Below the pieces are notes generated by a model. That model was not told the DNA's origin. It saw nothing but the letters and a program-made list of their open reading frames with translations, and made no database searches. DNA of 64,000 bases, from positions 110 through 64,109 of the forward strand of contig JBMFOU010000020.1 in the NCBI GenBank assembly GCA_049969475.1. The letters are read 5' to 3'. Numbering within the stretch: position 1 is the stretch's first letter; each line of letters begins with the position of its first letter. The position numbers were made by a program, and so were the translations under genes. Of the stretch, positions 3,561-55,349 are shown piece by piece. Origin of the DNA: Bacteroidales bacterium (lineage in GTDB: Bacteria > Bacteroidota > Bacteroidia > Bacteroidales > TTA-H9).

Positions 3561-4286
3561 TTGAAACTTCAACAAAGTCTGGGACTTTACCTTCGAAAGG
3601 CAGAGATTCCTTCTCCCTGGCGGGGAAAACCTGTCATATCCGATGCCAGGGTAGTTGAGGAGGCGGTTGCTGCGGTTTGCCCAACCGGGGCCATCAGCAC
3701 TGCCCCACTATCTATAGATTTGGGTCGCTGTGCCTTTTGTGGTGAATGTGCCCTGGCCTTTCCCGAAAAAATAAAGTTCACGAATAATAAGCAGATTTAC
3801 AGCAATAAAAGGGAGAATCTCATCATCAAAGAAGGAGACGATAGTCCTACCTTATTCGACCCTGAATCGGTTCGGTCCGAAATTAAACACATATTTCGAA
3901 AATCATTAAAAATCAGACAAGTATCGGCGGGAGGTGACAATTCGGCCGAATGGGAGCTTAATGCCAGCGGAAACGCTAATTTCGATATGCACAGGTTTGG
4001 GATTGAGTTTGTAGCTTCACCCCGTCATGCCGATGGTATAGTTACCACAGGCCCAATTTCTTCCAATATGGCTGAAGCCTTGCGAATTACATACGAAGCA
4101 ACACCTGATCCCAAAGTTATTATTCTGGCAGGTGGGGATGCTATTAGCGGAGGCATTTTTTCTGATAGCCCGGCCCTTGATCGTTCATTTCTTGACAACC
4201 ATCCTGTAGACCTTTATATACCGGGTAATCCCCCTCATCCCCTGGTGATTATAAATGCTTTACTTGACCTTTGCGGTAGGAAATAA
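3561..4286 (+). CDS. Ferredoxin-like N-terminus fused to a NuoB / hydrogenase-small-subunit-like (20 kDa subunit) domain that lacks the cluster cysteines
   Basis: N-terminus has VCPTGA ... CAFCGEC (4 Cys). C-terminus aligns to NuoB motifs RFG, ASPRHADG, PKVIILAGGDAISGG and VDLYIPGNPPHP, with Cys replaced by G/D/D/N. TTG start and no internal Met nearby. Confidence 0.6.
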   Translation: MKLQQSLGLYLRKAEIPSPWRGKPVISDARVVEEAVAAVCPTGAISTAPLSIDLGRCAFCGECALAFPEKIKFTNNKQIYSNKRENLIIKEGDDSPTLFDPESVRSEIKHIFRKSLKIRQVSAGGDNSAEWELNASGNANFDMHRFGIEFVASPRHADGIVTTGPISSNMAEALRITYEATPDPKVIILAGGDAISGGIFSDSPALDRSFLDNHPVDLYIPGNPPHPLVIINALLDLCGRK

Positions 4287-20944: not shown

Positions 20945-21009
20945 GACTACATGGTTTTAATTAGTTAATGTTTTGAATTAAAACCATATAGGGGAATATG
21001 AGAAAAATG

Positions 21010-21105
21010 CACCTTTTTATTCCCTACGCCGGCATTACCCGGATCAGGTTCAAAGGGTATAATCTCAGCCCCTTTTCCCAAGGAGCACCCCTATAAGGTA
21101 TCTGT
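21010..21105 (-). promoter_or_regulatory. TPP (THI-box) riboswitch aptamer
   Basis: The minus strand reads ccttataGGGGTGCtccttgggaaaaggGGCTGAGAttatACCCtTTGAACCTGATCCGGgTAATGCCGGCGTAGGGAAtaaaaagg. All universally conserved THI-box blocks are present in order. Confidence 0.9.
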
Positions 21106-31708: not shown

Positions 31709-31826
31709 AAAATTAATATGAAGAATTTCAGACCTATATTTTCACAATATTTTGGAAGCTTTTGATAAACAGATTAATTTTGTGAAGCCTAAAGTATCGC
31801 AAAGTTATTTTATACTAAAAATTAAT

Positions 31827-33848
31827 ATGTTACCTAAAGGCCTGCTATTGGCAATTATTTCAGTGTTTTTTATTTGGGTTCCTTCCTCGGGTCAGTTGCA
31901 GATTGTCCCACTTACCCGAAGCGATTCGGCTCGATTAGTAGAATGGAAATTAATGGCTGCGCAGCAACAGAAAACTGGTGACCTGCGGGAAGAGAGCCGG
32001 TATTACGATCTGATTGCTTTTCTTTATTGGGAACATAATTTTACCGAGCAAGCCATTGAATGGTATAAAAAATCCCTTGTTATCAATCAGAAGCTTGAAA
32101 ATCAGGCGGGTATATCAATGATTAATAGTAATTTGGGAATGCTCTATGCCGACCTCAAGCAGTATGAAAAATCATTGGAGCATTTCAACCAAACCCTCAA
32201 CTACCGCCAAATGATAAAAGATAAGGTGGGGATTATTACCACCCGAATCAACATCTCTGTAGTTTTGAATAACTTAGGTAGATTTGAGGAAAGTGCCCGC
32301 AACTTGCTTGAAGCACTTACATTGGCACGCGAGCTCAACGACATGGACCAGATGAAGAGCTGTTATGGCATGCTTTCGGAGACCTATGAAAAGGCGCGCC
32401 AGCCTGATAAAGCCAAATATTACTTCGACCTTTACCGAACCTTCCACGAAGAATTGCAAAGGCAAAAAGAAGCTAAAGCAAAAAAAATAGTAGAGGAAAC
32501 GCAACTTCAGTTGCAACTTACAGAAGCAGAAAAACGGAATAAAGAGCTAGAACTTCTCCTTAAGCAAAAAGAATTGAGCGAAGCTGAGCAAGAACTTAAA
32601 ACAGCCGGCGAACGACAAAAAAACCTTTACGATAACCTCACACGCTCCGAGTTGCGCAACGAGCTGCTAAAGCGTGACAACGAGTTGAAAAATGCAGAGT
32701 TGAAAAATGCGGCAGAAAAATCCGCTCGTCAACGTACCCAATTGTTATCGTTGGCTTTCATACTTTTCTTACTGTTGGCCCTGACGGTTGTAGTGTGGAG
32801 GGCTTATCTGAACAAAAAGAAAACCAATCGTTTACTGGCTGAACAAAAGGCTGAAATAGAGCGTCAAAAAAACGCCATCGAGTCGGCTTATCAGCAATTG
32901 CGCGAACTCACTGATTTCAAGGAGGGAATTCGTTCCATGATTGTTCACGACCTAAAAAATCCCTTAAACGCCATACTTAACCCTCCTTCGCACTACAAAG
33001 AAAGTCTGCGTTTGGAGCTTGCTCACAGAGCAGGAAGGCAGATGCTTAACCTGGTGATGAATTTTCTGGATGTTCAAAAATTTGAAGAGAACAAGCTTCC
33101 TCTAGAAATACAGGCATGTAACCTCTCGGCTCTGGCCCGACTTGCCGTCGACGAGACAAGTTTCTTGGGACAGTCACGGGGCCTGGTATTCCTGGTCAAT
33201 ATTCCCGAAAATATTGTTGGTCAATGTGACCCGGAAATTATAAAGAGGGTACTGGTCAATTTGTTGACTAATGCCATAAAATATGCTTTTCCCCAGAGCG
33301 AAATCACCATTCACGGGGTTTTTGACGAGGAGCGTGGAGTGGCCCGGATTTCGGTAACCAATGCGGGTGAGGGGATTTCCTCAGAGTTTCTTCCCCGGGT
33401 TTTCGATAAGTTTGCCCAGGGAGATGCCCGAGAGTCGGGGGCCATTAAAAGCACTGGCCTGGGCCTCACTTTTTGCAAGTTGGCTGTGGAAGCTCACAAG
33501 GGCCAAATTGGTGTGGAAAGCACACCGGGTAAGACCACCACATTTTGGTTTACCCTTCCGGCCCAATGGGTTGATACCTCTGCTGAAGGAGAAGTAATAG
33601 TAGTTCCACCCTTTGTGAACTTGCAGCCTGAATTAAACCGAGAGGAACTTCAGCTAATTCGAGCAGTAGTGGCACAATTAAAATCAGTCCCCATGCATAA
33701 AATTTCCCTTATTCGAAAGATTATAGCACCTTTGCGTCAAAAACCCAGCGATGGTATCTTGCAATGGCTCGAGGCCTTTTATTTTATTCTCGAAACTAAT
33801 GACTCCCAGAAATATTCTAATTTCCTGATGAACTATGCCAAACCTTGA
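31827..33848 (+). CDS. TPR-repeat sensor histidine kinase (periplasmic/extracytoplasmic TPR, coiled coil, one TM, HisKA + HATPase)
   Basis: TPR-like repeats (YYDLIAFLYWEHNFTEQAIEWYKKSL ...). TM LLSLAFILFLLLALTVVVW, H-box MIVHDLKNPLNAI, G-boxes GLGLTFCK. ATG 31827 preferred over TTG 31752. Confidence 0.8.
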   Translation: MLPKGLLLAIISVFFIWVPSSGQLQIVPLTRSDSARLVEWKLMAAQQQKTGDLREESRYYDLIAFLYWEHNFTEQAIEWYKKSLVINQKLENQAGISMINSNLGMLYADLKQYEKSLEHFNQTLNYRQMIKDKVGIITTRINISVVLNNLGRFEESARNLLEALTLARELNDMDQMKSCYGMLSETYEKARQPDKAKYYFDLYRTFHEELQRQKEAKAKKIVEETQLQLQLTEAEKRNKELELLLKQKELSEAEQELKTAGERQKNLYDNLTRSELRNELLKRDNELKNAELKNAAEKSARQRTQLLSLAFILFLLLALTVVVWRAYLNKKKTNRLLAEQKAEIERQKNAIESAYQQLRELTDFKEGIRSMIVHDLKNPLNAILNPPSHYKESLRLELAHRAGRQMLNLVMNFLDVQKFEENKLPLEIQACNLSALARLAVDETSFLGQSRGLVFLVNIPENIVGQCDPEIIKRVLVNLLTNAIKYAFPQSEITIHGVFDEERGVARISVTNAGEGISSEFLPRVFDKFAQGDARESGAIKSTGLGLTFCKLAVEAHKGQIGVESTPGKTTTFWFTLPAQWVDTSAEGEVIVVPPFVNLQPELNREELQLIRAVVAQLKSVPMHKISLIRKIIAPLRQKPSDGILQWLEAFYFILETNDSQKYSNFLMNYAKP

Positions 33849-40590: not shown

Positions 40591-40959
40591 ATGAGAATAC
40601 TGCTGGTTGACACATCCATACCCTTGTTAAACCGGCTTTCCCGCGCTTTAAAACGTCAGGGATGCCAGGCTGAAATAGCTGTGGCCAGCACGGCTTCCGA
40701 TGCATATGAAGAATTAGCCAGCAGTCCTTTTGATGTTGTGGTTTTCGACCTTTTCCTGCCTGATGACCCAGGGATGAAGTTTATACAGATTCTGAGCAAA
40801 GACTATCCCATGAGCACTCCACTCATTTATTCTTCTGACCTTAACCCTGATGTAGAAAAAATTTGCCGCTCGATGGGCGGAGCCTTTTTCTTTCGAAAAC
40901 CCGATGATCATGAAAAATTGATTCAAAAAATTTTAAACCTGGAAAACCGAATATCTTAA
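40591..40959 (+). CDS. Single-domain response regulator (REC) with atypical acidic pocket
   Basis: Phospho-Asp in VVVFDLFLPD and conserved FRKP Lys, but the N-terminal DD pair is D-T (LLVDTS). Confidence 0.8.
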   Translation: MRILLVDTSIPLLNRLSRALKRQGCQAEIAVASTASDAYEELASSPFDVVVFDLFLPDDPGMKFIQILSKDYPMSTPLIYSSDLNPDVEKICRSMGGAFFFRKPDDHEKLIQKILNLENRIS

Positions 40960-40962
40960 ACC

Positions 40963-41331
40963 ATGAAAAAAATTCTAATAACCGATGATTCGGCAACCAT
41001 GCGCAAAATGGTTATGGCAGCCTTGCGAATACTGCCGGATATATCGTTTTTAGAGGCATCCAACGGATTGGAAGCTTTGGAACTCATTGCTATCCATCGG
41101 CCCGATCTGGTGATTCTCGACATCAATATGCCCGATATGAACGGTATGGATGTGTTGCGATTTATCAGGAATCACCAGATTTTTTTCAAGATGCCGGTTA
41201 TTATGCTTACCACCCGTTCCGACGATGGCATCAAGTCTTCGGCTCTTGAAGCAGGGGCCACGATATATTTAACTAAACCATTTCAGCCCCAGAAGCTTAA
41301 AGAAGTGGTAGCACAACAGTTAAACCATTGA
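40963..41331 (+). CDS. cheY: CheY-like single-domain response regulator
   Basis: ILITDDS, LVILDINMPDMNG, MLTT, LTKPF. All canonical REC residues are present. Confidence 0.88.
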   Translation: MKKILITDDSATMRKMVMAALRILPDISFLEASNGLEALELIAIHRPDLVILDINMPDMNGMDVLRFIRNHQIFFKMPVIMLTTRSDDGIKSSALEAGATIYLTKPFQPQKLKEVVAQQLNH

Positions 41332-41334
41332 GCC

Positions 41335-41637
41335 ATGACGAGTCTTATTGAGGAGTTTGCTGATGATTTTTATGCCGAGGCCGATGAATAGCTGGGTTCG
41401 ATTCGAAAGTTGCTGCTTGAAGCAGAGCAGCATCCCCTGACTGCCGACCAGTTGCAGGCGCTCTTGAGAGCTTATCATACACTCAAAGGAATCTCGGGTA
41501 TGATGGGATTTTGATTTGTTGAAGAAATTTCCCACGACCTGGAAGCCTACCTTAAGAATCTTCAAAAACAAGGGAAGAATCTTGACAAGGACAATATTAC
41601 CTTTATTATCACTGGAACTTCGCTCATTGAATCCAAT
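41335..41637 (+). pseudogene. cheA: CheA Hpt (P1) domain coding segment, in frame with the downstream CheA ORF but interrupted by in-frame TAG (41389-41391) and TGA (41512-41514)
   Basis: My translation: MTSLIEEFADDFYAEADE*LGSIRKLLLEAEQHPLTADQLQALLRAYHTLKGISGMMGF*FVEEISHDLEAYLKNLQKQGK... The phospho-His motif HTLKG has its His codon at 41476-41478. Both 41335 and 41638 are congruent to 1 mod 3. ATG 41335 lies 3 nt after the cheY stop. Confidence 0.85.
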
Positions 41638-43332
41638 TTGAGCTCTAAAGGACAAGCCAACGAAGCGGATCTGGCATCATGGGGCGAATTGAAGGGGCGA
41701 CTTAAAGATTTGACTTTGGGTGAGAAGGTGGAAGATACAGCCAATTCTGCATCCCCCATGGCCAAAAAATTCAGAGTGGTTTTCGAATCATCGAAAGAAA
41801 ATTTTGAACAGAATATCACGGTAAATACGATTCGGGATATTTTAAGTGCACATTGTCAAATTCTTGAGGTTCATCCTATTACAGGTGAGAGTGACAGGTT
41901 ATTTTTTGAATTTATCGTATCTTCTGAATTGCCTTGCGACGAGCTGAGCAGAACTATGCCTGTTGCGGTCAAATGCGAAGCTTTGGAGGCTTTACCCACA
42001 GAGGGAGCTACCGTTGAAATAAATTCTTCCGGAGCAGGAAGTGCGTTTGTGGAGGCCAAAGAGAAGGTAGAATCGCCAGTAGGACGCGAAGAAAGGTCGG
42101 CTCTTAAAAGTGGCTTTGTTCGGGTTGACATCCATCGGTTGGAAGACCTGATGACCCTGATTGGAAATCTGGTAATTAGCCGCAGCAAGCTGGAAGAAGC
42201 CCTGCAGGTTTTGTCAAAAGAGGTAAAGGAGAATAAACTAAGATCATTGATTGAAATTAACCAACTGATGGAGCGTCAGTTGCGTAATCTGAGGGAAGGG
42301 GTCATGCGTGTACGCATGGTTCCTATTGCCGATGCTTTCGACCGCATGCAATACATAATTCAGGAAGCCTCGCGCAATTACAATCGTAAAATCCAGTTAC
42401 ATGTTGTTGGTAGGGAAACAGAAATCGATAAATATGTAGTGGAGCGCATGATCGATTCTTTGCTTCACCTGGTGCGAAATGCGGTGAGCCATGGTATTGA
42501 ACCCCCTGAAGAAAGGGTGAAGGCTGGTAAACCAGAAGTAGGAAATATTTATCTAAAGGCTTTTACTTCCGGCGATTCTGTTATTCTTGAGATTTCTGAC
42601 GATGGAAGAGGGATAGACCGACAGAAACTCATACGCAAAGGAATTGAGGCCGGAGTTCTGGCACCCAAAAACGAAGTAAGCGATGCTGAAATACTGGATA
42701 TCATGTGCAGACCAGGTATTTCAAGCAAAGATGAAGCAGATCGTTACAGTGGTAGAGGAGTAGGAATGGATGTGGTGCAGCGTACAATAATTGAATTGGG
42801 CGGTCAGCTCGATTTCAAGTCGGAACCCAATCAGGGGACCACTTTTATTATCCAGCTTCCGCTAACCATTGCTATTCTCGATGCACTCATCCTCCGGGTA
42901 GGAAACATGCGTTTTGCACTCCCTCAAACTATGGTCTCAGAAGTGATTCAGGTAGATCAAAACGATATAACCAGCATTGAAGGGAATCTCATCATTCCCT
43001 ACCGGAATCATGTGCTGGCAATCATCGATCTGATGGAATATTTCCATATAGGAGAGGGCGGCAGCGGAATGCGAAACGTGCTGGTGTGCAGCAGTGGTTC
43101 AAGGCTGGCCGGCCTGATGGTGGACAAAGTAGAAGGAATAAGGGAAATTGTGGTACGAACCATCACCGACCCACTGGTCTCGGTTCCGGGTATTTCTGGG
43201 GCTACCGAGCTAGGCGACGGCAAGCTGATTCTTATTATCGATGCTAACGCACTCATAAAACATGTAGTTCAAATCCGTCAGAAAAGTGCAAGGAAAATTG
43301 AAGGTTTACCTAATTTATTGAAAAATGAGTAA
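41638..43332 (+). CDS. cheA: Chemotaxis histidine kinase CheA core (dimerization, HATPase, CheW-like P5). The longest stop-free part of the gene.
   Basis: H-kinase dimerization region VRVDIHRLEDLMTLIGNLVI, N-box HLVRNAVSHGIE, G1 DDGRGID, G2 GRGVGMDVV, C-terminal CheW-like domain. The M at 41638 is a TTG picked by the ORF caller and is not a supported start. Confidence 0.9.
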   Translation: MSSKGQANEADLASWGELKGRLKDLTLGEKVEDTANSASPMAKKFRVVFESSKENFEQNITVNTIRDILSAHCQILEVHPITGESDRLFFEFIVSSELPCDELSRTMPVAVKCEALEALPTEGATVEINSSGAGSAFVEAKEKVESPVGREERSALKSGFVRVDIHRLEDLMTLIGNLVISRSKLEEALQVLSKEVKENKLRSLIEINQLMERQLRNLREGVMRVRMVPIADAFDRMQYIIQEASRNYNRKIQLHVVGRETEIDKYVVERMIDSLLHLVRNAVSHGIEPPEERVKAGKPEVGNIYLKAFTSGDSVILEISDDGRGIDRQKLIRKGIEAGVLAPKNEVSDAEILDIMCRPGISSKDEADRYSGRGVGMDVVQRTIIELGGQLDFKSEPNQGTTFIIQLPLTIAILDALILRVGNMRFALPQTMVSEVIQVDQNDITSIEGNLIIPYRNHVLAIIDLMEYFHIGEGGSGMRNVLVCSSGSRLAGLMVDKVEGIREIVVRTITDPLVSVPGISGATELGDGKLILIIDANALIKHVVQIRQKSARKIEGLPNLLKNE

Positions 43333-43780
43333 CTCAACGGTTCAGACTGATTCATACATACTTTTTCAATTGGGAGACAATCATTTTGCTTTGCCCAGTG
43401 TAGTCGTGAAGCAACTTGATATGGTAGAATCCATTACCCCTATCCCTGGTGCGCCTTTTTATGTTGAAGGGATTGTTTTTAGCCGGGGCCTGGTGATTCC
43501 AGTGGTTAACCTGCGACTGAGGCTGGGTATGGAATACAAGCAGCCCGATATGCGTTCACGTATGATTATCATTTACAGCCACAATCGACATATAGGTTTG
43601 ATTGTGGACTCAGCCCGCGATTTTGTGCACTTGCAGGCTGACTCTATCCTTCCCCCTCCTGAAAATGTAGCCGGACTCTCGGGAAATTACCTTATGGGTA
43701 TAGCCCACCTCAAAGACCGCTTGGTTATTGTGCTTAATGTGGATGCTTTAATGAATGAAGAAGTTACTGATAATAAATAA
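43325..43780 (+). CDS. cheW: Coupling protein CheW
   Basis: 151 aa. [21 protein letters not shown]...[23 protein letters not shown]. The ATG overlaps the cheA stop (ATGAGTAA). Confidence 0.9.
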
Positions 43781-43793
43781 ATCTAAGGTGAAT

Positions 43794-45875
43794 ATGCTCT
43801 GGAATTCGAAAAAACGCAAAACAAATACAGTTATGAATGAAAAAATGAAAGAGACAGGGATTTCTGCTGAGGTAAGAGAGACCCTGAATGTTTACATACG
43901 TTCGCTCTTGAGCCATGTTACGGGCTTGGAAGAAAAGACCGAACGGGTAGTGAAAGGTGCCGAAGACCAGGTGAAAGCCATTGACAATCTGTTGAGTGGT
44001 CAGAATCAGGCGGCAGCCACGCTTAAAGAAAATGCTGAACAGGCCGAGTCGATTGCCGTTTCGGCCGAGGAAATGCTCAGTGGTATTAATGAAATAGCAG
44101 CCTCTGTTGAGCAAATCAGTTCAGGAGCCAAAGTTCTGGATACTGCTACCGAGGAGGTAGCCAATGCTACAACGGAATCCGTGGCCGGAACCCAGCAAGT
44201 TGCGCAGGGTGCTCTCGAGATGTCAGCCTCGGCCCAGGAACTGGCCGCTTCAATGACTGAACTATCGGCTTCCTTTAGAAGCGTTGGCGAAGACACCCAA
44301 GTGCTAATAGGAAACATTGATGGAGTAGCAACCGCCATCGAACAAATTGGAAAAACTACCGACAACCTCGCCCAGAATTCGCTCGATTTAGCCTCTGCCG
44401 CCGAACAAAGCACTTCTGCCATCAACGAAATGGCTTCTGCCATAGAAGAGGTAACAGCCACTACCGAACATCTATCTGCCAATATCGAAAAGGTTGCTTC
44501 AGCAAATGAAGAACTTGCAAGAAGTTTTGAAAGCGTCTCGCAGTCCGTTAAAATTATCAGTTCAGCCAACGACAATGCGGCGACAAGCGCCACACAGCTC
44601 GATGCCAGCTCCCGGTCGGTGGCTTCCATGGCCTCACAGGCCAAAGAATTCAGCTCGTTAATGAAGCAAAGAACCACCGAGGGTATTGATCTGGCGCAGA
44701 AATCCATTCAGGGATTGTTTAAGGTCAAGGAATCGTTTACGGCTACTTCTTCCGTTATCAAAGAGTTAGGACGTCGATCCTCAGAAATAAGTAGTATTGT
44801 AGATACCATCAATCTCATTTCTGAACCTACGAATCTTCTGTCGCTCAATGCTTCCATAGAGGCAGCCAGGGCAGGTGAGGCAGGCAGAGGATTTGCGGTA
44901 GTGGCCGAGGAGATACGCAATCTGGCCGATAGAGCAGCCAAAGCTACTGCTGATATTGCAGCTATTATTCGTTCGTTTCAGGAGATTACACAGGAAGCAG
45001 TTTCTTCAACCAGTGAGGGCTTACGTATTGTGGATGAAGGAACTCACCTGGCTGATGAAAGTTTAAAAGGGTTGAATGTAATCAAAGAAGCCATTGAGCA
45101 AACCAACCAGGTTATTGGGCAGGTGGCCAAAGCATCGGATGAACAGATGGCTGCTTCTGCCAATGTTATGAAGCTGGTCAAGGAAACCTCTGAAAAGACC
45201 CGTGATGTAGTAAGAGCTATTGAGGAACAAACTTTGGGGTCGAAAGAAATTGCTACCAGTATGGCTACCATGCGCACTTCAGCCAAACAGGTTGCTCAAA
45301 GCATGGCCGAGCAAGGCAAAGCTGCCCGCGAAATTATTCGGGCCGCCCAAGCTACCTCTCAGCTGGCTGTGCATCTTAAGAATGCCTCCGCCGAGCAAAG
45401 CAAAGCAGTTCAGCTTATTACCCAAAATACCTCCAGCGTCCAGAAAATGGCTCAAAAAACAGCTAAAGCTATTCAGGAGCAGATATTGGCTGGTGATCAG
45501 GTGGCTAAAGAAGTGGTAAGGCTTGAGAAAATTATTTCTGCCACATCCAAGGCCATGAATGAACAATCGGTAGCCGCTAACCAAATTTCACACTCTATAG
45601 AAAATATCCGCAAACATGCACGCCAGACGGCTTCAGCGCTTGCTGAGCAATCGAAGGCTATCCATGAAATGAGTTTGGCAACCCAGAGTATTAGCCGTCA
45701 AATAGCCCAACTTTCGAAGGCAAATAAAGAACATGTTAAAGTTAACGAGGACGCCCTGAATAGACTGGCTGAAATCAGACGAATTACTGATCGCAACTCT
45801 TCAGAAGCCCGCGAAAGTCTTTCCATCTTACAAATTATAAGAGAAAAAGCCGCTGAACTGGATAGGCTTATCTAA
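43794..45875 (+). CDS. Soluble methyl-accepting chemotaxis protein consisting only of an unusually long, internally repetitive signalling hairpin
   Basis: Tip motif [35 protein letters not shown]. No hydrophobic segment, HAMP or sensor domain. ATG 43794 (after the cheW stop) preferred over 43755. 28-residue periodicity throughout. Confidence 0.85.
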
Positions 45876-45890
45876 TACATTGATGACATT

Positions 45891-48461
45891 ATGAATCAGA
45901 TAGGTGCTTCCCAAAATAATTACAATGAACCCCAGGGGGTAGGTGTGGCCTCGCTCAATCTACTCTATGAGGTTGTTTACTGGAACGATAACATGCGAAG
46001 TATTACCGGGCTGAGCGAAGCTGAGGTAAAAGGGAAACACATTGAGGATATTCTCCCGGGTTTCAAGAGTCCACTTATGCGCAGGAGGATGGATAATTGT
46101 GTGCGAAACGGAGTGGTGGAATTCATTAGCGGAGTCCTCAATTCCCGACTTTTTATTCGGCCCGGATCTGATTCTGAGGCTCTGAAAGACTTTATGCTAA
46201 CCCTGGCACCCCTTCGTATAGAGGAGGAAGAGTCGGTGGGAATGATTTTGATTCTGGAGGTTACAGGACAGGGCCAAAGAGAGAAGACTGACGAAGCCCA
46301 ATCCGTGAGTTGTCCGTATGAGGCGCTCGATACGGCTCAATTGGTGGAAGATTTGATACATCGCCATCACAATCCGGCTTTGCTTTCATCGGTGCTCGCT
46401 CTTCTCACAACAGCTACCGGTAACCTGGTACCTATGCTGGTAGAATTACTGGAAAAATCTGATGCAGACCTGAAAATATATGTTTTGCAGACCCTGGGCG
46501 AAAGAGGCGACAACGAGGCTATTCCGGCCATCATTAAATCCCTCGACGATCCCGACCCTAATGTTAAATACCATGCTATAGAAGCTTTGGGCAAACTAAA
46601 GGCTGTAGAATGTGTCAACCAACTGGTTTCCATAGCTTTCAGTGATGATTACTTCCTTTCTTCAGCTGCTATCATGGCCCTGGCACTTATGGGTGACGCA
46701 ATGGTGTATCCTTCCCTGCGTTTGCTTTGGAAAAATGAAATGCTAACCGATGCCATGATTTCGCTGGCCTCTGCCTGTGGAACTGTGGAAGCGGTTACTG
46801 ATTTGTGTACCGTTATTAATCAGAATCCTTTATATACGGCGGAAGCAGCCCAAGCGCTGGCAAAAATATTATCAGGTCATCGTCTTCCTTTGACTGCCAC
46901 CCCTCACGAAAAGTTAATCTCAAAGTTGATTGATGCCACAGGGGCGCAAAACTTACTTCGGGTGGCAGAGCAGGCACCAGAAGATAAACTTCCTGCATTA
47001 TTGCGAATTCTGGCTTTGCTGGATTACCCTTCGGTTGACAAGTTTTTGATCAGGGTGATTGGGAACCCTCAGGTAAAGGAGGTAGTGATTGAGGGTTTAG
47101 TAAAAAAAGGTGACCGTTTGATGCCGGCTTTGGCTCAACTCATAGAGAGCGGCGACGAATCGGAGCGCTCCGCCGCTATTATCACGTTGGGACGCATTGG
47201 TAACTCGGCAGCATTGCCTTATCTTGTAAAGGCCCTCAATGATGAGCCTCAGTTAGCTATACTTGCTGCCGGGGCCCTGGCTAAAATCGGCGACCGCGCT
47301 GCCTTCGAACCCCTGATAGCCAATTTGGGTCATCCCGATCCCCTGGTTCGCAGAGCTGCAATTTCAGCCCTGAATAGCATAGGTCATCCGCAGATGGAAG
47401 CAGTTATCTTCAGACTTCTGGATGATCCTGATCCTTTGGTACGTGAGTCGGCTATCAAAATTGCCGGTTATTTTGGATATCCTTCCTGCGCCCCAAAAGT
47501 CGTCAGTGCTTTATATGATTCCGATAACCTCGTTCTCGCAGCAGCGATTGAGGCTTTGCCTTTTTTCGACCTGGAGAATGCTGAAAAATTACTCACTGGG
47601 TTGTTTCATACGTCCAATGCACGCATTAGGTCGCAGATTGCCAAGTCGGCAGCTTTCCTGGAGCCTGAAATGGCCTTGCCCATTCTGCGTCTTGCCCTCT
47701 CTGACCTTGATCCCTGGGTGCGAACCTTTGCGTTGCGAAGTGTATCGAGACAGGGGCTTAAAGAATTTCATCCCATATTAAAAGAAATTCTTGAGGGCGA
47801 CCATCCTCCTTTTCTTTATGCGGCAGCCATGGAAGCAGTCGGAGCCTTACAGCTCGTGGAGTTTATGCCATTGCTCAAGCAGTATGCTCAAAGCAGTAAT
47901 CTTGACCTTGCCGGCGCTGCCATTAATGCACTTGCTGACCTGGGTATGGAGGAAGCGCTTAATCACTTACTTGAAATGCTTCCGGGAGTCGACGCCGAAC
48001 TAAAAAAATATCTTATACAGGTGCTTCGTCATTTCAATCATAATGCTGTGGTCGATCAACTCGTTGTTCTGGCTTCGGCCTCTCACGATGAAGCGCTCCG
48101 GCAGGCATGTATTGAAACCCTTTCAATCCTGGATACCCCACATGCGTATCTTGGTTTGCTCAAGCTTATTAGAATTCCAGCATGTCAAACCGGCACGATT
48201 GAGGCACTCATTGCTAAAAAGAAACACTATCCGGAGCTTATCTGGCAGTTTGGTCAGATGAGTGTTGAAAATCGCCTGCTCCTGGTGAGCCTTTTACAGC
48301 ACCTGCCCCTTGCCATGTTCCGCGACATTTTGGTAAGATATGCATCGGATGAAGACTTTAGGGTAAGAAATCATTACCATATGCTACTTACGGAGCTTGA
48401 TCTGCTCATGGCACTCGAGGATTCTGTTACGGGCAATAAGACCGGTCATCGAGAAAATTAA
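45891..48461 (+). CDS. PAS domain + HEAT-repeat (PBS-lyase-like) protein
   Basis: N-terminal ~120-aa PAS-like fold, then many HEAT-like units with a D(P/L)DPxVRxxAxxALG signature (DPDPNVKYHAIEALGKL, HPDPLVRRAAISALNSIG, DPDPLVRESAIKIAG, DLDPWVRTFALRSV). Confidence 0.8.
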   Translation: MNQIGASQNNYNEPQGVGVASLNLLYEVVYWNDNMRSITGLSEAEVKGKHIEDILPGFKSPLMRRRMDNCVRNGVVEFISGVLNSRLFIRPGSDSEALKDFMLTLAPLRIEEEESVGMILILEVTGQGQREKTDEAQSVSCPYEALDTAQLVEDLIHRHHNPALLSSVLALLTTATGNLVPMLVELLEKSDADLKIYVLQTLGERGDNEAIPAIIKSLDDPDPNVKYHAIEALGKLKAVECVNQLVSIAFSDDYFLSSAAIMALALMGDAMVYPSLRLLWKNEMLTDAMISLASACGTVEAVTDLCTVINQNPLYTAEAAQALAKILSGHRLPLTATPHEKLISKLIDATGAQNLLRVAEQAPEDKLPALLRILALLDYPSVDKFLIRVIGNPQVKEVVIEGLVKKGDRLMPALAQLIESGDESERSAAIITLGRIGNSAALPYLVKALNDEPQLAILAAGALAKIGDRAAFEPLIANLGHPDPLVRRAAISALNSIGHPQMEAVIFRLLDDPDPLVRESAIKIAGYFGYPSCAPKVVSALYDSDNLVLAAAIEALPFFDLENAEKLLTGLFHTSNARIRSQIAKSAAFLEPEMALPILRLALSDLDPWVRTFALRSVSRQGLKEFHPILKEILEGDHPPFLYAAAMEAVGALQLVEFMPLLKQYAQSSNLDLAGAAINALADLGMEEALNHLLEMLPGVDAELKKYLIQVLRHFNHNAVVDQLVVLASASHDEALRQACIETLSILDTPHAYLGLLKLIRIPACQTGTIEALIAKKKHYPELIWQFGQMSVENRLLLVSLLQHLPLAMFRDILVRYASDEDFRVRNHYHMLLTELDLLMALEDSVTGNKTGHREN

Positions 48462-48463
48462 CT

Positions 48464-49321
48464 ATGCGTTTTTATCGGGAATCTCTAGGTCTGAGTGACA
48501 GTGCTTTTACTATTTTACGCGATCTCATTCACGAGCGCACAGGTATTTATTTCGACGAGATGCGCCGCGACATGTTGGCAGACAAACTCTCTGGAAGAGT
48601 TATTGAGCTGGGGTTTAATAGCTTCCTCGATTATTATTATTTCCTGAAATACGATCCCGCAGGGGAATCCGAGTTTAAGGTAATTTTTAATCTTATTACA
48701 GTTAATGAAACCTACTTTTTCAGGGAAATGCATGCGCTGGAGGCTATTGTGTACCATCTGGTACCCCTGCTTAAAAATCACCTCAACGGAGGAACTTTGC
48801 GCATTTGGAGTGCAGCCTGTAGCAGTGGGGAAGAACCTCTTACCATTGCAATAATGCTAAAAGAAGCGGGGCTATGGGACCCAACTATAGAAATCATAGG
48901 AACTGATGCTTCGAGCCTGGCCCTTGGAAAAGCCATTAAGGGCCTATACAGCGAGCGATCATTCAGAGCCACATCCAACGAAATACGTAAAAAATATTTT
49001 AAACTTACTGAAAATGGATTGTATCAAATAGCGCCTGAAATTCACCAGAGTATTCGTTGGGCGGTGGTAAACCTTAAAGAAGCGTTTCAGGTACGGCCTT
49101 TTGCTGCCAGCCACATCATACTGTGCCGCAATGTATTTATTTACTTCTCAAGTTCTGTAATTCAAGAGGTCGTGGAAAATTTTTATAAATTTATGCCTGA
49201 GATCGGTTATTTGGTAGTAGGTGTATCTGAATCTCTGCTCAAATACCCCATTCCTTTCGAGATGGTAGATGTAAATGGGGCACTTCTTTATGCTAAAAAT
49301 CATAAAAATCTGAATAAATGA
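48464..49321 (+). CDS. cheR: Chemotaxis protein methyltransferase CheR
   Basis: N-terminal helical CheR_N domain, VNETYFFRE, SAM-binding IWSAACSSGEEPLTIA, ILCRNVFIYF. Confidence 0.92.
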   Translation: MRFYRESLGLSDSAFTILRDLIHERTGIYFDEMRRDMLADKLSGRVIELGFNSFLDYYYFLKYDPAGESEFKVIFNLITVNETYFFREMHALEAIVYHLVPLLKNHLNGGTLRIWSAACSSGEEPLTIAIMLKEAGLWDPTIEIIGTDASSLALGKAIKGLYSERSFRATSNEIRKKYFKLTENGLYQIAPEIHQSIRWAVVNLKEAFQVRPFAASHIILCRNVFIYFSSSVIQEVVENFYKFMPEIGYLVVGVSESLLKYPIPFEMVDVNGALLYAKNHKNLNK

Positions 49322-50379
49322 ATCATAATCCAGAAAAGATCATCCGGGTACTGGTCGTCGACGATTCGGCATACATACGCAAGGTCATGCGGCAGATGCT
49401 CGACAAAAGTCCATTTATTGAGGTGGTGGGAACCGCTATCAATGGATTGGATGCTTTGGAGAAGGTTGAATTACTGGATCCCGATGTTATCACCCTCGAC
49501 CTGATAATGCCCGAGATGGACGGGGTGAGCTTTCTCAAAGAGTTGATGAAGCGAAAGCCTAAACCGGTTGTAGTGGCCAGTATTGCCAGCGAAAGCGGTG
49601 AGTTGGCTATGGCTGCCATGGAGGCCGGAGCCATTGAATTCATTCAGAAACCTACGGCCCTGGCTACTGAGAAAGTTTTTGAGATTTCCAGTGAACTGAT
49701 AGAGAAAGTGAAAAGTGCAGCCCAGGCACGTTTAATCCCCGCTGAAAAGGAAAGGGTGTCAGTTTTACCCGGAGAAATTCCTGGCTTTGAGCGCGAACGT
49801 CTTGCTTTCGATATAGTTGTGATAGGTGTATCTACCGGAGGCCCCCAGGCTTTGAAATCCATCATTCCCCTGATGCCGGCCGATTTTCCGGTTCCTGTGT
49901 GTGTTGTAATGCATATGCCGGTAGGATATACCAGTCTCTACGCACAGAAGCTCAACGAAATATCTGCAGTTGAGGTGCTCGAAGCCAGCGTAGGGATGCA
50001 GCTTTTGCCGGGCCGCGTAATTTTGGGGCAGGCGGGTGAACATTTTGGAATCAAGCGATTGCCTGGAGGTGAAGCGGTAGTAACCTTCCCCAGCGAACCC
50101 ACCGAAAGTATTCACAAACCTTCTGTCAACGTACTTTTCCGTTCAGCAGCCGAAGTTTTTGGACAAAGGGTGCTTGGAGTGGTAATGACAGGCATGGGAA
50201 ACGATGGACAGGAAGGCGCAGCATGGATAAAAGCCAGAGGAGGAAAAATCATTACCCAGGATGAAGATTCCTGCGTAGTATACGGAATGCCTCGCTCAGT
50301 GTTAGAGGCAGGCCTTTCCGATAAAGTAGTTCCATTAAACCAAATGTTAAACACCCTAATTAAAGAACTGTTGCTATGA
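49318..50379 (+). CDS. cheB: Protein-glutamate methylesterase CheB (REC + methylesterase)
   Basis: REC (VLVVDDS, VITLDLIMPEMDG). Catalytic Ser in GVSTGGP, His in VMHMP, Asp in GMGNDG. ATGA overlap with cheR. Confidence 0.92.
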   Translation: MNHNPEKIIRVLVVDDSAYIRKVMRQMLDKSPFIEVVGTAINGLDALEKVELLDPDVITLDLIMPEMDGVSFLKELMKRKPKPVVVASIASESGELAMAAMEAGAIEFIQKPTALATEKVFEISSELIEKVKSAAQARLIPAEKERVSVLPGEIPGFERERLAFDIVVIGVSTGGPQALKSIIPLMPADFPVPVCVVMHMPVGYTSLYAQKLNEISAVEVLEASVGMQLLPGRVILGQAGEHFGIKRLPGGEAVVTFPSEPTESIHKPSVNVLFRSAAEVFGQRVLGVVMTGMGNDGQEGAAWIKARGGKIITQDEDSCVVYGMPRSVLEAGLSDKVVPLNQMLNTLIKELLL

Positions 50380-50729
50380 AAAAGATTCTCATTATCGACG
50401 ATTCTTCTCTTTCTCGTAAGATCATCCGGCGAATGATTGGTGAAGAAAGTTATGAGTTTATCGAAGCGGGTGAAGGCCTGGCAGCCATTGAAGCCTATAA
50501 GGCAAACCACCCTGACCTGGTTTTGCTCGACCTCAACATGAGTGGCATGTCGGGTATGGAAGTGCTCCGGCATATCAAAGAAATTGACTCTCAGGCCCGG
50601 ATCATTATCGGAAGTGCCGATATTCAGCAGGCCACTATCGACGAGTTTATGGCTGCCGGAGCCACTGCCTACATTACCAAACCCTTCAAACAGGAGCAAA
50701 TAAAGGAAATTCTGAAACGATTTATCTGA
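50376..50729 (+). CDS. cheY: CheY-like single-domain response regulator (second copy)
   Basis: ILIIDDS, LVLLDLNMSGMSG, ITKPF. ATGA overlap with cheB. Confidence 0.88.
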   Translation: MKKILIIDDSSLSRKIIRRMIGEESYEFIEAGEGLAAIEAYKANHPDLVLLDLNMSGMSGMEVLRHIKEIDSQARIIIGSADIQQATIDEFMAAGATAYITKPFKQEQIKEILKRFI

Positions 50730-50754: not shown

Positions 50755-51300
50755 ATGATACTAACAAACACCCAGAAAGATAATCTGACCGAGCTAATAA
50801 ATATTGGGTTTTCGAGAGCGGCGGCCGCCCTATCAGAGCTTACGGGCGATCGCATCCTCCTGGAAGTACCTAAAGTGAATGTTGTTCCGGTGAATGAGCT
50901 TTCAAAACGACTATCTCCCATGGCTGATGGTGAAGTGACTACTGTGCATCAGCTTTTTGCTGGGGAGGTGAGTGGCGATGCCATGCTCATTCTCAACCGC
51001 CAGGGTGCACTACTGCTGACAGACTTGCTCACAGAATCAGAAACCGGAACCTACACCGACTTCAGCTCCACCGTTAAGGAGGTACTTCTCGAGGTGGGCA
51101 ACATCATTCTTAACTCCTGTTTGGGGATGTTTGGTAACCTTCTGAAAGTGCATTTCACCTTCAGCGTGCCTGAACTCCATATAAATGCCATAGAAGAAAT
51201 GCTGAAAACACTCGACGCGGGAGAAAAAAGGGTGGACTACGCTCTGCTGGTGTTTATGGGTTTTCGTTGCGCGAGAAATTTATTTCCGGAAACCTGGTGA
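50755..51300 (+). CDS. cheC: CheC-type CheY-P phosphatase, C-terminus displaced by a frameshift (continuation in the -1 frame to 51380)
   Basis: Two copies of the CheC/FliY/CheX active-site pattern (D/S)-x3-E-x2-N-x22-P: DNLTELIN-22 aa-P and EVLLEVGN-22 aa-P. After ...ALLVFMGF the protein-like sequence SLREKFISGNLVIVLGVISLAKLLEKINRLDDLMLEES continues in the frame one base back. Confidence 0.75.
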   Translation: MILTNTQKDNLTELINIGFSRAAAALSELTGDRILLEVPKVNVVPVNELSKRLSPMADGEVTTVHQLFAGEVSGDAMLILNRQGALLLTDLLTESETGTYTDFSSTVKEVLLEVGNIILNSCLGMFGNLLKVHFTFSVPELHINAIEEMLKTLDAGEKRVDYALLVFMGFRCARNLFPETW

Positions 51301-51392
51301 TTGTGCTCGGTGTAATTTCGCTAGCCAAATTGCTTGAGAAAATTAATCGCCTGGATGATTTAATGTTGGAAGAATCCTAAAACTTTCGCCGC

Positions 51393-54300
51393 ATGAAGGA
51401 CGCTCTGCTTAAGTGGATGATGGGAGCATCGGGCATGGGAATCCTGCTGCTCGACAAGGATTTGAATATTATGGACGTTAATGAGTGGGTACTGCTAAAA
51501 ACAGGTAAGCGGCGAGATGAGATTATTACTTGCCCGATTACAAGGGTCTTTCCCGAGATAACCGAACTTAAAAACGATCGTTATCTGCAAGCAGCACTCA
51601 AAGGCGAAATTCATGTGCTTTCAGGACGTTTTCACAAGTACTTCATCCGTATTCCAGTGGAGTATCCCGATGGCAAGGTCGATTATATGCTCCAAAGTGC
51701 CAATGTCAGCCCTCTTTACGAGGGAGGTGAAATTGTGGGTGTAACAGTGGCTATACAGGATATTACCGAGCGTACCTTGTATGAAACACGTATCTCACAG
51801 CAATTGAAAGAATTAAAGGATAAAAATTACAAGCTGGAGCAGTCTGAGCAACAATACAAGGAATTAATCGAATCGACCGAGGCCATCGCATGGGAGTACG
51901 ACATTGAAGAAGACCGATGGACCTATATAGCCCCACAGATAGAGAAAATATTCGGGTTCTCAAGGCATGAAGCCATGGAACCCGGGTTTTGGATGTCGCA
52001 TATCCACCCGTTGGATGTCGAAAAAATAATCGCCCTCTACAAAGCATTTCCTGATACGGTCGAAAATCTTACGCTCGTATACCGTTTCAGGGACAAACAA
52101 GGGAAATTTCGGTGGGTAAGAGATTTTGTTCAAGTTTCATTGTCGCGAAAAAAGGGGATGGTGCGGCGTGGAATTATGCTCGATATCACCGCCAGCCGCG
52201 AAGCAGAAGAACAGATTCGTTATAATGAAGCTCTCTTTCGTACTACACTCTACAGTATAGGCGATGGTGTAATAACCACCAACAGCCTGGGTAACGTTAG
52301 GCAAATGAATCCTGTGGCAGAGCTACTCACAGGCTGGAAAGAAGAGGAAGCTACAGGCAAGCCCCTGGCAGAAGTGTTTCGGATTATTTCAGAGGATTCA
52401 CGCCTTCCAGTGGACGATCCAGTTATAAAGGTTTTAAGGGAAGGGAAAGTGGTTGGATTAGCCAATCATACGCTGCTCATCAGCCGAGATGGCAGAGAAA
52501 TTCCTATCAGCGATTCCGGTGCTCCCATAAAAAATGACGATGGGGATATAACAGGGGTCGTTTTGGTTTTTCACGACCAAACCGAAGAAAGGGCTGCACG
52601 ACGCAAACTTGAAGAGAGCGAAGCCCGCTATCGCTATATGTTTTATAATAATCCTCAGCCCATGTGGATTTACGATCTGGATAGCCTGTCTTTTCTCGAG
52701 GTAAACGACGCTGCAGTAAAGCACTATGGTTACTCCAGAGATGAATTTTTAAGAATGACGATCAAAGACATTCGACCTGCTGAGGATATCCCCTTGCTTT
52801 TGAAAGACGTTGAGGCCACCAAACATCAACTCAATCAGGCAGGGCGCTGGAGGCATCTCAAGAAAAATGGTGAAGTCATTGATGTGGAAATTACTTCTTT
52901 TGCCGTAGAATTTGCCGGCAGGCCGGCCCGGCATGTCATGGTTAATGATATTACTGAACGCCTAAAAGCAGAAGAGGCATTGGCTGAAAGCGAACGTCGT
53001 TTCCGCAATTTGGCTGAAAATGCCCCTGACCTGATTTTTCACTATCAAATTCTGCCTGAACGGAAATTTACTTATGTCAGTCCTTCGGCCACTCAAATCA
53101 CTGGATATACGCCTGAGGAACATTATGCCGATCCTGACTTGGGCTTCAAAATTGTTGTTGATGAAGACAAACAAATTTTGGCCTCAGCATTGAATATTCA
53201 GCCGGGCGCAGGCCCAGTGAAGCTTAGCTTGCGTTGGAAACGTAAAGATGGTCATATAATCTGGACTGACCTGCGCATGGTGCCCATTTTTGATGAATCC
53301 GGCCAGTTGGTGGCGCTGGAAGGCATTTCGCGAGATGTAACAGAAGTGCGTCTTGCCCAGCTTTTGCAGGAAATTCAATACAATGTAGCAGAAGCTTTGG
53401 TAAAGACCACCGGATTGGAGGAATTGGTGGCCACTATTAAAAAGGAATTAAATAAAGTAATCGACACCACAAATTTCTATATTGCTTTTTATGATGAAAA
53501 TGATGATACTTTCCATTCGGTAATTTTTATTGACCAGGTTGACAGGGTTAGCAAATGGCCAGCCAAGGGCAGCCTTTCAAAATATTTGTTGAAGATTAAT
53601 AAAGCTGTTTTTCTTAAAAGAAAAGATATTGAACAACTGGCTGAAGATGGTGAAATTGAGATAATTGGACATCCGGCAGTCCATTGGTTAGGTGTACCTC
53701 TGAGAATGAGTGGGGTTACAGAGGGGGTTATGGTTGTTCAATCATACTCCGAAGACATTCCTTTTTCAGAGCAATTGCTTCAGGTTTTGGAAGAAATTGG
53801 CATTGGAGTCAGCTTATTTATTGAGCAAAAGAAGCAAATGATGGTAGCCCAGCAATTGCTTATTGGCATAGAGAGCAGCCCTGTAAGTACTCTAATAACT
53901 GATAGAGAGGGTTATATTCTGTATGTGAATAATGCTTTTTATAAGACTACAGGTTTTACTCCGTCCGATATTAAGCGGCAAACTCCCAGGATTCTTAAAT
54001 CAGGACTTCACCCGGCCGACTATTACGAAAAAATGTGGCAAACTATCGTTTCGGGCGAGCCCTGGAAAGGACAGATTTTAAACAAACGTAAAGACGGAAG
54101 CACTTTTTGGGCTACCTTGGTTATTTCTCCCATGAAAAATAAGGAAGGAATCATTACCCACTTTATTGCCGTAATGCAGGATATTACGGAAGAAATTGAA
54201 ATGATTACCGCTTTACATGAAGCTAAAGAAAAGGCAGAAGAGAGCGACCGTCTCAAATCGGGCTTTCTGGCCAATATGAGCCACGAAATTCGTACCCCTC

Positions 54301-55349
54301 TCAACGGTATTATTGGTTTTGCAGAAATGCTGGCTACAGGCCATGCCAGCCCCGAAGAGGTTACTGAATTCGGGCAGGTGATTCTGTCGAGTAGTACAAG
54401 GCTCCTGGAATTGCTAAACAATATCGTTGATCTTAGCAAAATAGAGGCGGGGGCTGAAGAAATCGTCTGGTCGTCGGTATCTCCTGCCGGAATTATTGAT
54501 GAAGTGCTGGCGCAGATGAATTCATTGGCCAGCAAAAAGCATATTGGACTTAGGAAAAAAATTGCCCCAGAGGTAGAAGATCTGGTCATAATGTCCGATG
54601 TATCCAAACTGCATCGTATTTTGGTTAATTTGGTGAATAACGGAATCAAGTTTACGGATAAGGGATACGTGGAAGTGGCCTGCTCAGTTGAAAGTGATAA
54701 TCTGGTGGTGAAAGTAATCGATTCAGGCAGGGGTATAGCTCCGGAGCATCTGCCCCGTATTTTTGAGCGTTTCTACCAAACAGATTATTCTTATAGCCGA
54801 GGATGGGAGGGGGCTGGCCTGGGATTGGCTATTTCCAAAGGGCTCGTAGAAATGCTGGGAGGTACTATCTGGGTGGAGTCGAAGCTGGGAGAAGGCTCTG
54901 TTTTTGCCTTTACTCTCCCCATCAAAGAAGCCCCCAAAGCTAAATCAGAGTCAAATATCAAGGCGAAGGATTTAATTCCGACCCGACAGCTCAAAGTGAT
55001 GGTAGCAGAAGATGATATATCGAGTTACAACTATTTAAAAATTCTTCTCTCCCGCATGGGATGCGAAGTATTACATGCTCCCGACGGCCTGAAGGCAATA
55101 GAGCTTATGCAAGACCACCCAGATATAGACCTCGTATTGATGGATATTAAGATGCCGGGTATGGATGGTTTTGAAGCTGCCCGGCAAATTCGAAAAATCA
55201 ATCCCAAAGTTGTCATTATTGCCCAGACGGCCCATGCCATGGCCGGCGACAGAGAAAGAATTCTCTCCGCTGACTTCGACGATTATTTATCCAAGCCCAT
55301 ACGGAGTGCCGTTTTAATCGAGACCATTCGTAAATTTTTTCCCAAATAA
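51393..55349 (+). CDS. Multi-PAS / GAF hybrid sensor histidine kinase (PAS x5-6, GAF, HisKA, HATPase, REC)
   Basis: 1318 aa. Repeated PAS cores ending in DITERK/DITEE, H-box MSHEIRTPLNGI, GAGLGLAISK, C-terminal REC (VMVAEDD, LVLMDIKMPGMDG, LSKP). Confidence 0.9.
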   Translation: MKDALLKWMMGASGMGILLLDKDLNIMDVNEWVLLKTGKRRDEIITCPITRVFPEITELKNDRYLQAALKGEIHVLSGRFHKYFIRIPVEYPDGKVDYMLQSANVSPLYEGGEIVGVTVAIQDITERTLYETRISQQLKELKDKNYKLEQSEQQYKELIESTEAIAWEYDIEEDRWTYIAPQIEKIFGFSRHEAMEPGFWMSHIHPLDVEKIIALYKAFPDTVENLTLVYRFRDKQGKFRWVRDFVQVSLSRKKGMVRRGIMLDITASREAEEQIRYNEALFRTTLYSIGDGVITTNSLGNVRQMNPVAELLTGWKEEEATGKPLAEVFRIISEDSRLPVDDPVIKVLREGKVVGLANHTLLISRDGREIPISDSGAPIKNDDGDITGVVLVFHDQTEERAARRKLEESEARYRYMFYNNPQPMWIYDLDSLSFLEVNDAAVKHYGYSRDEFLRMTIKDIRPAEDIPLLLKDVEATKHQLNQAGRWRHLKKNGEVIDVEITSFAVEFAGRPARHVMVNDITERLKAEEALAESERRFRNLAENAPDLIFHYQILPERKFTYVSPSATQITGYTPEEHYADPDLGFKIVVDEDKQILASALNIQPGAGPVKLSLRWKRKDGHIIWTDLRMVPIFDESGQLVALEGISRDVTEVRLAQLLQEIQYNVAEALVKTTGLEELVATIKKELNKVIDTTNFYIAFYDENDDTFHSVIFIDQVDRVSKWPAKGSLSKYLLKINKAVFLKRKDIEQLAEDGEIEIIGHPAVHWLGVPLRMSGVTEGVMVVQSYSEDIPFSEQLLQVLEEIGIGVSLFIEQKKQMMVAQQLLIGIESSPVSTLITDREGYILYVNNAFYKTTGFTPSDIKRQTPRILKSGLHPADYYEKMWQTIVSGEPWKGQILNKRKDGSTFWATLVISPMKNKEGIITHFIAVMQDITEEIEMITALHEAKEKAEESDRLKSGFLANMSHEIRTPLNGIIGFAEMLATGHASPEEVTEFGQVILSSSTRLLELLNNIVDLSKIEAGAEEIVWSSVSPAGIIDEVLAQMNSLASKKHIGLRKKIAPEVEDLVIMSDVSKLHRILVNLVNNGIKFTDKGYVEVACSVESDNLVVKVIDSGRGIAPEHLPRIFERFYQTDYSYSRGWEGAGLGLAISKGLVEMLGGTIWVESKLGEGSVFAFTLPIKEAPKAKSESNIKAKDLIPTRQLKVMVAEDDISSYNYLKILLSRMGCEVLHAPDGLKAIELMQDHPDIDLVLMDIKMPGMDGFEAARQIRKINPKVVIIAQTAHAMAGDRERILSADFDDYLSKPIRSAVLIETIRKFFPK

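Follow-up and report, generated by a model that had tools for sequence, protein, structure and literature searches.

A cheA gene whose P1 (Hpt) phosphotransfer domain is crossed by two in-frame stop codons was found in the window, as we call the whole 64,000-nt stretch of Bacteroidales DNA analyzed here. The reading that best accounts for it, to which we assign a probability of roughly 0.6 on the strength of sequence comparisons, is that cheA has probably undergone a genuine and recent loss of function within the recurrent decay of an accessory Che-like cluster. When the window is read directly, the cheA frame extends on the forward strand from ATG 41335, 3 nt after the TGA (41329–41331) of the upstream receiver gene, to TAA 43330–43332 and is interrupted solely by the two stops, with no indel. 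The first stop is a TAG at codon 19 (41389–41391, forward strand), which corresponds to Leu19 of the E. coli CheA P1 domain and lies near the domain start; the second is a TGA at codon 60 (41512–41514, forward strand), which corresponds to Ser60 of E. coli CheA. The two lie 123 nt apart and flank the CAT codon (41476–41478, forward strand) of the phospho-accepting His, which lies in the motif YHTLKG and matches His48 of E. coli CheA. An earlier note, made from the letters of the window, had given the same positions for the ATG, both stops, and the His codon and had reported the absence of an indel, all of which proved correct.

In the list of open reading frames, cheA appears only as a 564-aa ORF starting at TTG 41638, with both stops in its frame. 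The earlier note had taken this TTG to be a start chosen by the ORF caller, and indeed it is merely the place where a start-type codon first occurs beyond the second stop. Upstream of it, the P1 remnant occupies codons 1–101 of the ancestral 665-codon cheA (41335–41637, forward strand), as recognized from its translation, Pfam, alignment with E. coli CheA, and orthologues, and it shares its frame with the remainder of the gene. Downstream, the portion that remains open (41638–43332, forward strand) was assigned from the 564-aa ORF, Pfam, and alignment to a variable linker, P3, the P4 ATPase with its N, G1, and G2 boxes, and a CheW-like P5. In the window cheA, P1 and the kinase core are not linked by one uninterrupted frame, since the TAG at codon 19 and the TGA at codon 60 break it. 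Judged by these alignments, the 303-nt stretch is a genuine P1 domain cut by two nonsense codons, its reading frame unchanged.

The identity of the interrupted segment follows from several comparisons. With the stops masked, Pfam placed Hpt (PF01627) at residues 8–87 and, after it, H-kinase_dim, HATPase_c, and CheW, which is the order found in CheA; PF02895, PF02518, and PF01584 all exceeded their cut-offs. A sequence search of the PDB aligned residues 5–119 of the window protein with residues 5–119 of the E. coli CheA P1 domain (8C5V, 1I5N), His48 falling on His48, and the read-through CheA is 84% identical to its closest orthologue across the full 665 aa. Given the Pfam match, the alignment with E. 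coli CheA, and the identity to the orthologue, a chance open frame is untenable for 41335–41637. The earlier description of the segment as a standard Hpt domain with an HTLKG motif is thus upheld by an Hpt E-value of 2.8e-12 and a residue-for-residue alignment with E. coli CheA. In the alignment of CheA with its relatives, the sequences HLVRNAVSHG, DDGRGID, and GRGVGMD are kept, so that the N, G1, and G2 boxes are all present.

The gene accordingly resembles canonical CheA as known from E. coli and Thermotoga maritima (P1 structures 1I5N, 8C5V, and 1TQG) in its domain order, in the placement of His48 within an H-T/S-L/I-K-G motif common to the window P1 and the E. coli P1, and in an operon that likewise holds cheW, an MCP gene, cheR, cheB, and cheY. 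It differs in that codons 19 and 60 are stops, leaving P1 untranslatable, and in that the protein has no Pfam match to P2, a variable linker of 150 residues standing in that place. The host also differs, being a Bacteroidales lineage whose cluster includes a PAS-HEAT-repeat protein. With P1 untranslatable, ATP-dependent autophosphorylation of the His and transfer of the phosphate to CheY are predicted to be absent from the window CheA.

Four related lineages were recovered for comparison, and the AlaS and CheA relatives bear Bacteroidales or Bacteroidota names. The closest, L002, is a Logan assembly of SRR28311681 with a CheA identity of 82–84% to the window. It is followed by a lineage represented by L001, L003, L004, L005, and L009 (a UBA2030 MAG, two JGI metagenomes, a Logan run, and AMZC01007520; 77–78%), by L008 (Logan ERR14790952; 77%), and by the ENA assemblies L006 and L007 (75%). 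A same-species genome was sought among genome contigs, metagenome contigs, and full-length proteins, where nothing exceeded 82% CheA identity; the window CheA ORF is the sole member of its 90% cluster, and the species is represented by one contig of 64,128 nt, nearly all of which the window takes up.

In all four lineages P1 is uninterrupted and fused to the kinase core, and CheA measures 665–666 aa, the read-through length of the window gene; in the three lineages other than L002, cheA is uninterrupted throughout. The earlier note had pointed out that a P1 naturally split off or missing in orthologues would argue against recent decay, and the fused state in each lineage speaks the other way. 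At codon 19 the four lineages have CTG, CTG, CTG, and CTT, all Leu, and at codon 60 they have TCG, TCG, TCC, and TCT, all Ser. Two of the three bases in each window stop depart from the codons of the relatives. A proposed origin by single C-to-T changes from CAG and CGA therefore does not hold, since the relatives carry Leu and Ser codons rather than Gln or Arg. The immediate precursors were likely TTG and TCA, each one transversion away from its stop, unless the change took two steps.

The break appears to be very recent. Relative to L002, dN/dS is 0.042 for P1, 0.038 for the kinase core, and 0.02–0.13 for the neighboring genes, with dS above 1 throughout, a saturation that leaves the P1 value without power to detect recent relaxation. 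On these values, P1 experienced strong purifying selection through almost the whole period after the split from L002. At sites identical among the four other lineages, four changes in P1 are private to the window (E17D, L19stop, F44L, and S60stop), and eight such changes fall in the kinase core, which amounts to no missense excess in P1 (Fisher p = 0.13). It is this absence of a missense excess, together with the low dN/dS of P1, that indicates the recency of the break. Two of the four private P1 changes are stops, a share above what neutral drift after a first stop would be expected to give by our rough estimate, which puts the chance that a random substitution creates a stop at about 1 in 20. 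This excess keeps three alternatives alive, namely that the stops are artefactual, that one population carries several loss alleles, or that loss is selected.

The cheA gene sits in an operon that Pfam delineates as a ten-gene Che-like operon. Directly upstream of it are two intact receiver-domain genes (40591–40959 and 40963–41331, forward strand). Downstream, on the same strand and intact by Pfam and tblastn, are cheW (43325–43780), an MCP gene (43794–45875), a gene for a large protein with a PAS domain and HEAT/PBS-lyase repeats (45891–48461), cheR (48464–49321), cheB (49318–50379), and a third receiver gene, cheY (50376–50729). A CheC/CheX-like phosphatase gene follows (50755–51380, forward strand), recognized as frameshifted by comparison with L002, and after it a PAS-GAF hybrid kinase gene (51393–55349). 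The partner genes from cheW to cheY are 76–91% identical to those of L002 by tblastn, free of stops and frameshifts, and have dN/dS values of 0.04–0.13 in that comparison. The lesion in the CheC-like gene is a 1-nt deletion in a T run, four T at 51261–51264 in place of the five of L002, and it puts the last 40 residues in another frame. The claim that the partner genes are intact save for a CheC-like frameshift was thus sustained by the comparison with L002.

The output of the pathway may not be flagellar, as the PAS-HEAT protein in the operon and a window devoid of flagellar genes together suggest. The Che7-type accessory chemosensory cluster of Myxococcus xanthus has a HEAT-repeat partner, Cpc7. 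The window operon likewise encodes a large HEAT-repeat protein and is in this respect reminiscent of Che7; in contrast to Che7, the window HEAT protein has an N-terminal PAS domain, and the cluster adds a CheC/CheX-like phosphatase and then a PAS-GAF hybrid kinase.

Whether the damage is scattered or concentrated bears on its origin. The window was compared with L002 over 31.8–52.8 kb (18 genes) and with L012, L011, and L010 over 0.3–18.5 kb (about 16 genes), together about 34 genes and 40 kb. Among these, the damaged window genes are cheA, with its two stops, and the CheC-like gene, with its 1-nt deletion, which belong to the same operon; at 1–18.5 kb, all of the housekeeping genes (roughly 16) are intact in the window and in L010, L011, and L012 alike.

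Sister lineages carry lesions of their own in the same block. The cheA gene of L002 is interrupted by an in-frame TGA immediately beyond the G2 box (DVVQ*TI; L002:11447–11449), with a conserved frame downstream of it; the codon at this site encodes Arg in the window (CGT), L009 (CGT), L008 (CGC), and L006 (CGA). The TPR histidine kinase gene of L002 also has an in-frame stop, a TAA in its G2 box (L002:2133–2135), where the window has AAG (Lys) and the gene forms one continuous 698-codon ORF (31752–33848). In L003, an IS3-type transposase pair (HTH_Tnp_1 and rve) replaces the region from the C-terminus of the HEAT protein through roughly residue 1190 in the PAS kinase, and owing to this replacement L003 lacks cheR, cheB, cheY, the CheC gene, and about 90% of the PAS kinase gene. 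Its close relative L009 is complete in the cluster (L003:17092–18449 versus L009:17098–20157), and with 3 differences between the two over the first 17,000 nt, this is a strain-level deletion.

Two further observations concern the same pair of assemblies. At 4457–5373 of L003 and L009, a Big_3_3 gene is cut to its C-terminal half and has a frameshift at about 5065. These UBA2030-like contigs also lack the TPR kinase and receiver-kinase genes that lie upstream in the window, a further case of decay in the signalling block.

An artefact would take the form of assembly or consensus errors, or of a mixed-population consensus in which the loss alleles are a minority, and we consider it unlikely though the most serious of the competing explanations. 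The record is a single metagenome-type assembly, and both stops are known from that contig alone. Three window-specific changes fall within 7 nt (GAT GAA TAG versus GAA/GAG GAG/GAA CTG), with E17D 4 nt from the TAG, a cluster that a local assembly fault could produce. The CheC-like lesion is the loss of 1 nt from a T run, a classic type of error, although this run is just 4–5 nt long. Two stops 123 nt apart beside only two missense changes are also more nonsense than neutral drift typically gives. Against this, errors should spread evenly, whereas the other 32 or so compared genes are free of stops and frameshifts; the grouping of all three lesions in a single operon, with two within 123 nt, is unlike a uniform error process; and two independently assembled relatives are damaged in the same cluster, which points to biology. 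The occurrence of three different recent lesions in one cluster across three lineages speaks for a biological origin of the window stops, and we infer that they are probably present in the DNA of the living population rather than in the assembly.

Among the five readings offered by the earlier note with none preferred (recent inactivation, heterogeneity, consensus errors, readthrough, and a P1-less core), very recent inactivation is therefore the best supported, given intact fused orthologues, past purifying selection, a second lesion in the operon, and independent lesions in sister lineages. The features agree with those of nonsense pseudogenes of motility and signalling genes in gene-losing bacteria, in which in-frame stops occur without an indel while orthologues are intact. 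As in such bacteria, the lesions are limited to dispensable signalling genes, sister lineages have independent lesions, and gene remnants lie nearby; we see no essential difference from that pattern.

It is extremely improbable that the stops are read through or recoded, by selenocysteine, pyrrolysine, a suppressor tRNA, or RNA editing, such that the cell would still obtain full-length CheA. The reading frame flanking each stop is intact and conserved, and a sister lineage too has in-frame stops in its kinase genes, as recoding would allow. Across the two lineages, however, TAG, TGA, and TAA are all involved, at nonhomologous sites, and the orthologues hold Leu, Ser, Arg, and Lys at the stop sites rather than Cys or Trp. 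At codons 19 and 60 in particular, neither Cys/Sec nor Lys/Pyl was found in the orthologues, which have Leu and Ser there. Window genes end at orthologue-confirmed TAA (14), TGA (10), and TAG (3) codons, and all three stop codons thus terminate genes, in agreement with the earlier view that genome-wide reassignment is unlikely and that TGA and TAG act as real stops (gap, alaS, and cheY end in TGA; the rhodanese gene ends in TAG). Comparison with shuffled controls found no SECIS-like or otherwise stable recoding fold downstream of either cheA stop: the RNA fold after the TGA is weaker than the controls (z = +1.15), and that after the TAG is unremarkable (z = −1.5). No suppressor tRNA is encoded in the window, whose sole tRNA genes are two for tRNA-Leu. 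Stop usage, the tRNA scan, and the RNA folds consequently give readthrough no support.

TadA-type A-to-I editing, which requires a UACG context, was also considered, as it would turn both stops into Trp; this candidate was dropped, since neither site has the context and the orthologues lack Trp there.

A different proposal is that the gene now encodes a P1-less CheA core, translated from an internal start (TTG 41638 or the next in-frame ATG, 41758) and phosphorylating the Hpt domain of another protein in the manner of CheA-short or CheA4. We regard this as very unlikely. From codon 102 onward the gene is intact and conserved, with the low core dN/dS given above and with N, G1, and G2 boxes and P5 all present, and split CheA systems are known. 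Yet with dS saturated, this conservation mirrors the past only. As a start, the TTG at 41638 is not conserved: CTC, CTG, TTA, and CTA stand at this codon in the relatives, no start codon in three of the four lineages, so that no conserved internal start downstream of the phospho-His was found there. Nor did Pfam detect PF01627, and with it a separate intact Hpt gene, among the ten flanking proteins scanned, which span 30.8–64 kb. The CheC-like gene of the same operon is broken too, and the L002 lesion strikes the kinase core itself, which points to loss and not remodelling. The earlier suggestion of a core resembling CheA-short accordingly finds no support, given the unconserved TTG and the lack of another Hpt domain in those ten proteins.

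CheA-short of E. coli starts internally at Met98 and lacks His48; the longest ORF remaining in the window starts at codon 102, nearly the same place, and likewise lacks the phospho-acceptor His. CheA-short, however, has a conserved internal start and accompanies full-length CheA, whereas the window gene can make no full-length form. The resemblance follows from where the frame reopens and the ORF caller met the first start. In the split CheA of Rhodobacter sphaeroides, CheA3 carries P1 and CheA4 carries the kinase core. A core without its own P1, as in the window, could in principle phosphorylate a P1 in trans; unlike CheA3, the window P1 lies in untranslatable pieces rather than in a separate gene, and the orthologues are fused.

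Under the favored reading of recent loss of function, two nonsense substitutions in P1 would have converted Leu19 to TAG and Ser60 to TGA, and translation from ATG 41335 would end after 18 residues. His48 would then never be made within a folded four-helix bundle, leaving no protein that bears the phospho-acceptor. The kinase core, if made at all, would lack its substrate histidine and, following the established CheA mechanism, could pass no phosphate to the CheY and CheB receivers. The roughly 300 nt left untranslated may also exert polarity, lowering the expression of the translationally coupled, overlapping downstream genes. The cheA lesion would in this way form part of an ongoing, lineage-by-lineage loss of the accessory Che-like cluster.

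This is ordinary gene decay and involves no new mechanism. For the purposes of annotation, neither a functional CheA nor a natural P1-less kinase is a fitting label for the 564-aa ORF; the gene should be marked as a pseudogene, and the Che-like pathway of the organism as probably nonfunctional. On a small scale, the case illustrates how a long-conserved Che-like cluster has been lost repeatedly, in independent and recent events, within a clade of uncultured Bacteroidales that has no obvious flagellar system. A more speculative and distinctly improbable proposition is that loss of the cluster has been repeatedly selected and not merely tolerated; it is suggested by the fact that three lineages have different recent lesions despite strong long-term purifying selection. 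If so, the pathway would be useful in a source habitat and its loss briefly advantageous in the sampled habitats, and the double stop around His48 would be a mark of selection or the trace of several loss alleles in one population.

Other features of the window were recorded alongside. An orphan Oxidored_q6 (NuoB-like) gene at 3561–4286 lacks the first ~18 residues of its relatives. It is the sole remnant of a six-gene complex-I/hydrogenase-like operon, which L010 and L011 retain intact and L012 lacks altogether, and it thus indicates other gene loss in the window lineage, outside the che operon. In an adjacent ComEC-like ORF (4351–6591), the stop is lost at 6433–6435, where the window has AAG and three relatives have TAG or TAA. 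The next in-frame stop of the relatives is changed as well, and the ORF is therefore 52 codons longer, its overlap with the convergent alaS amounting to 214 nt rather than some 58 nt. A TPP riboswitch (Rfam RF00059, 80.7 bits) lies at 21004–21102 on the reverse strand, upstream of an 801-aa ORF (18539–20944) whose orthologue in L010 and L012 has Plug and TonB-dependent receptor domains.
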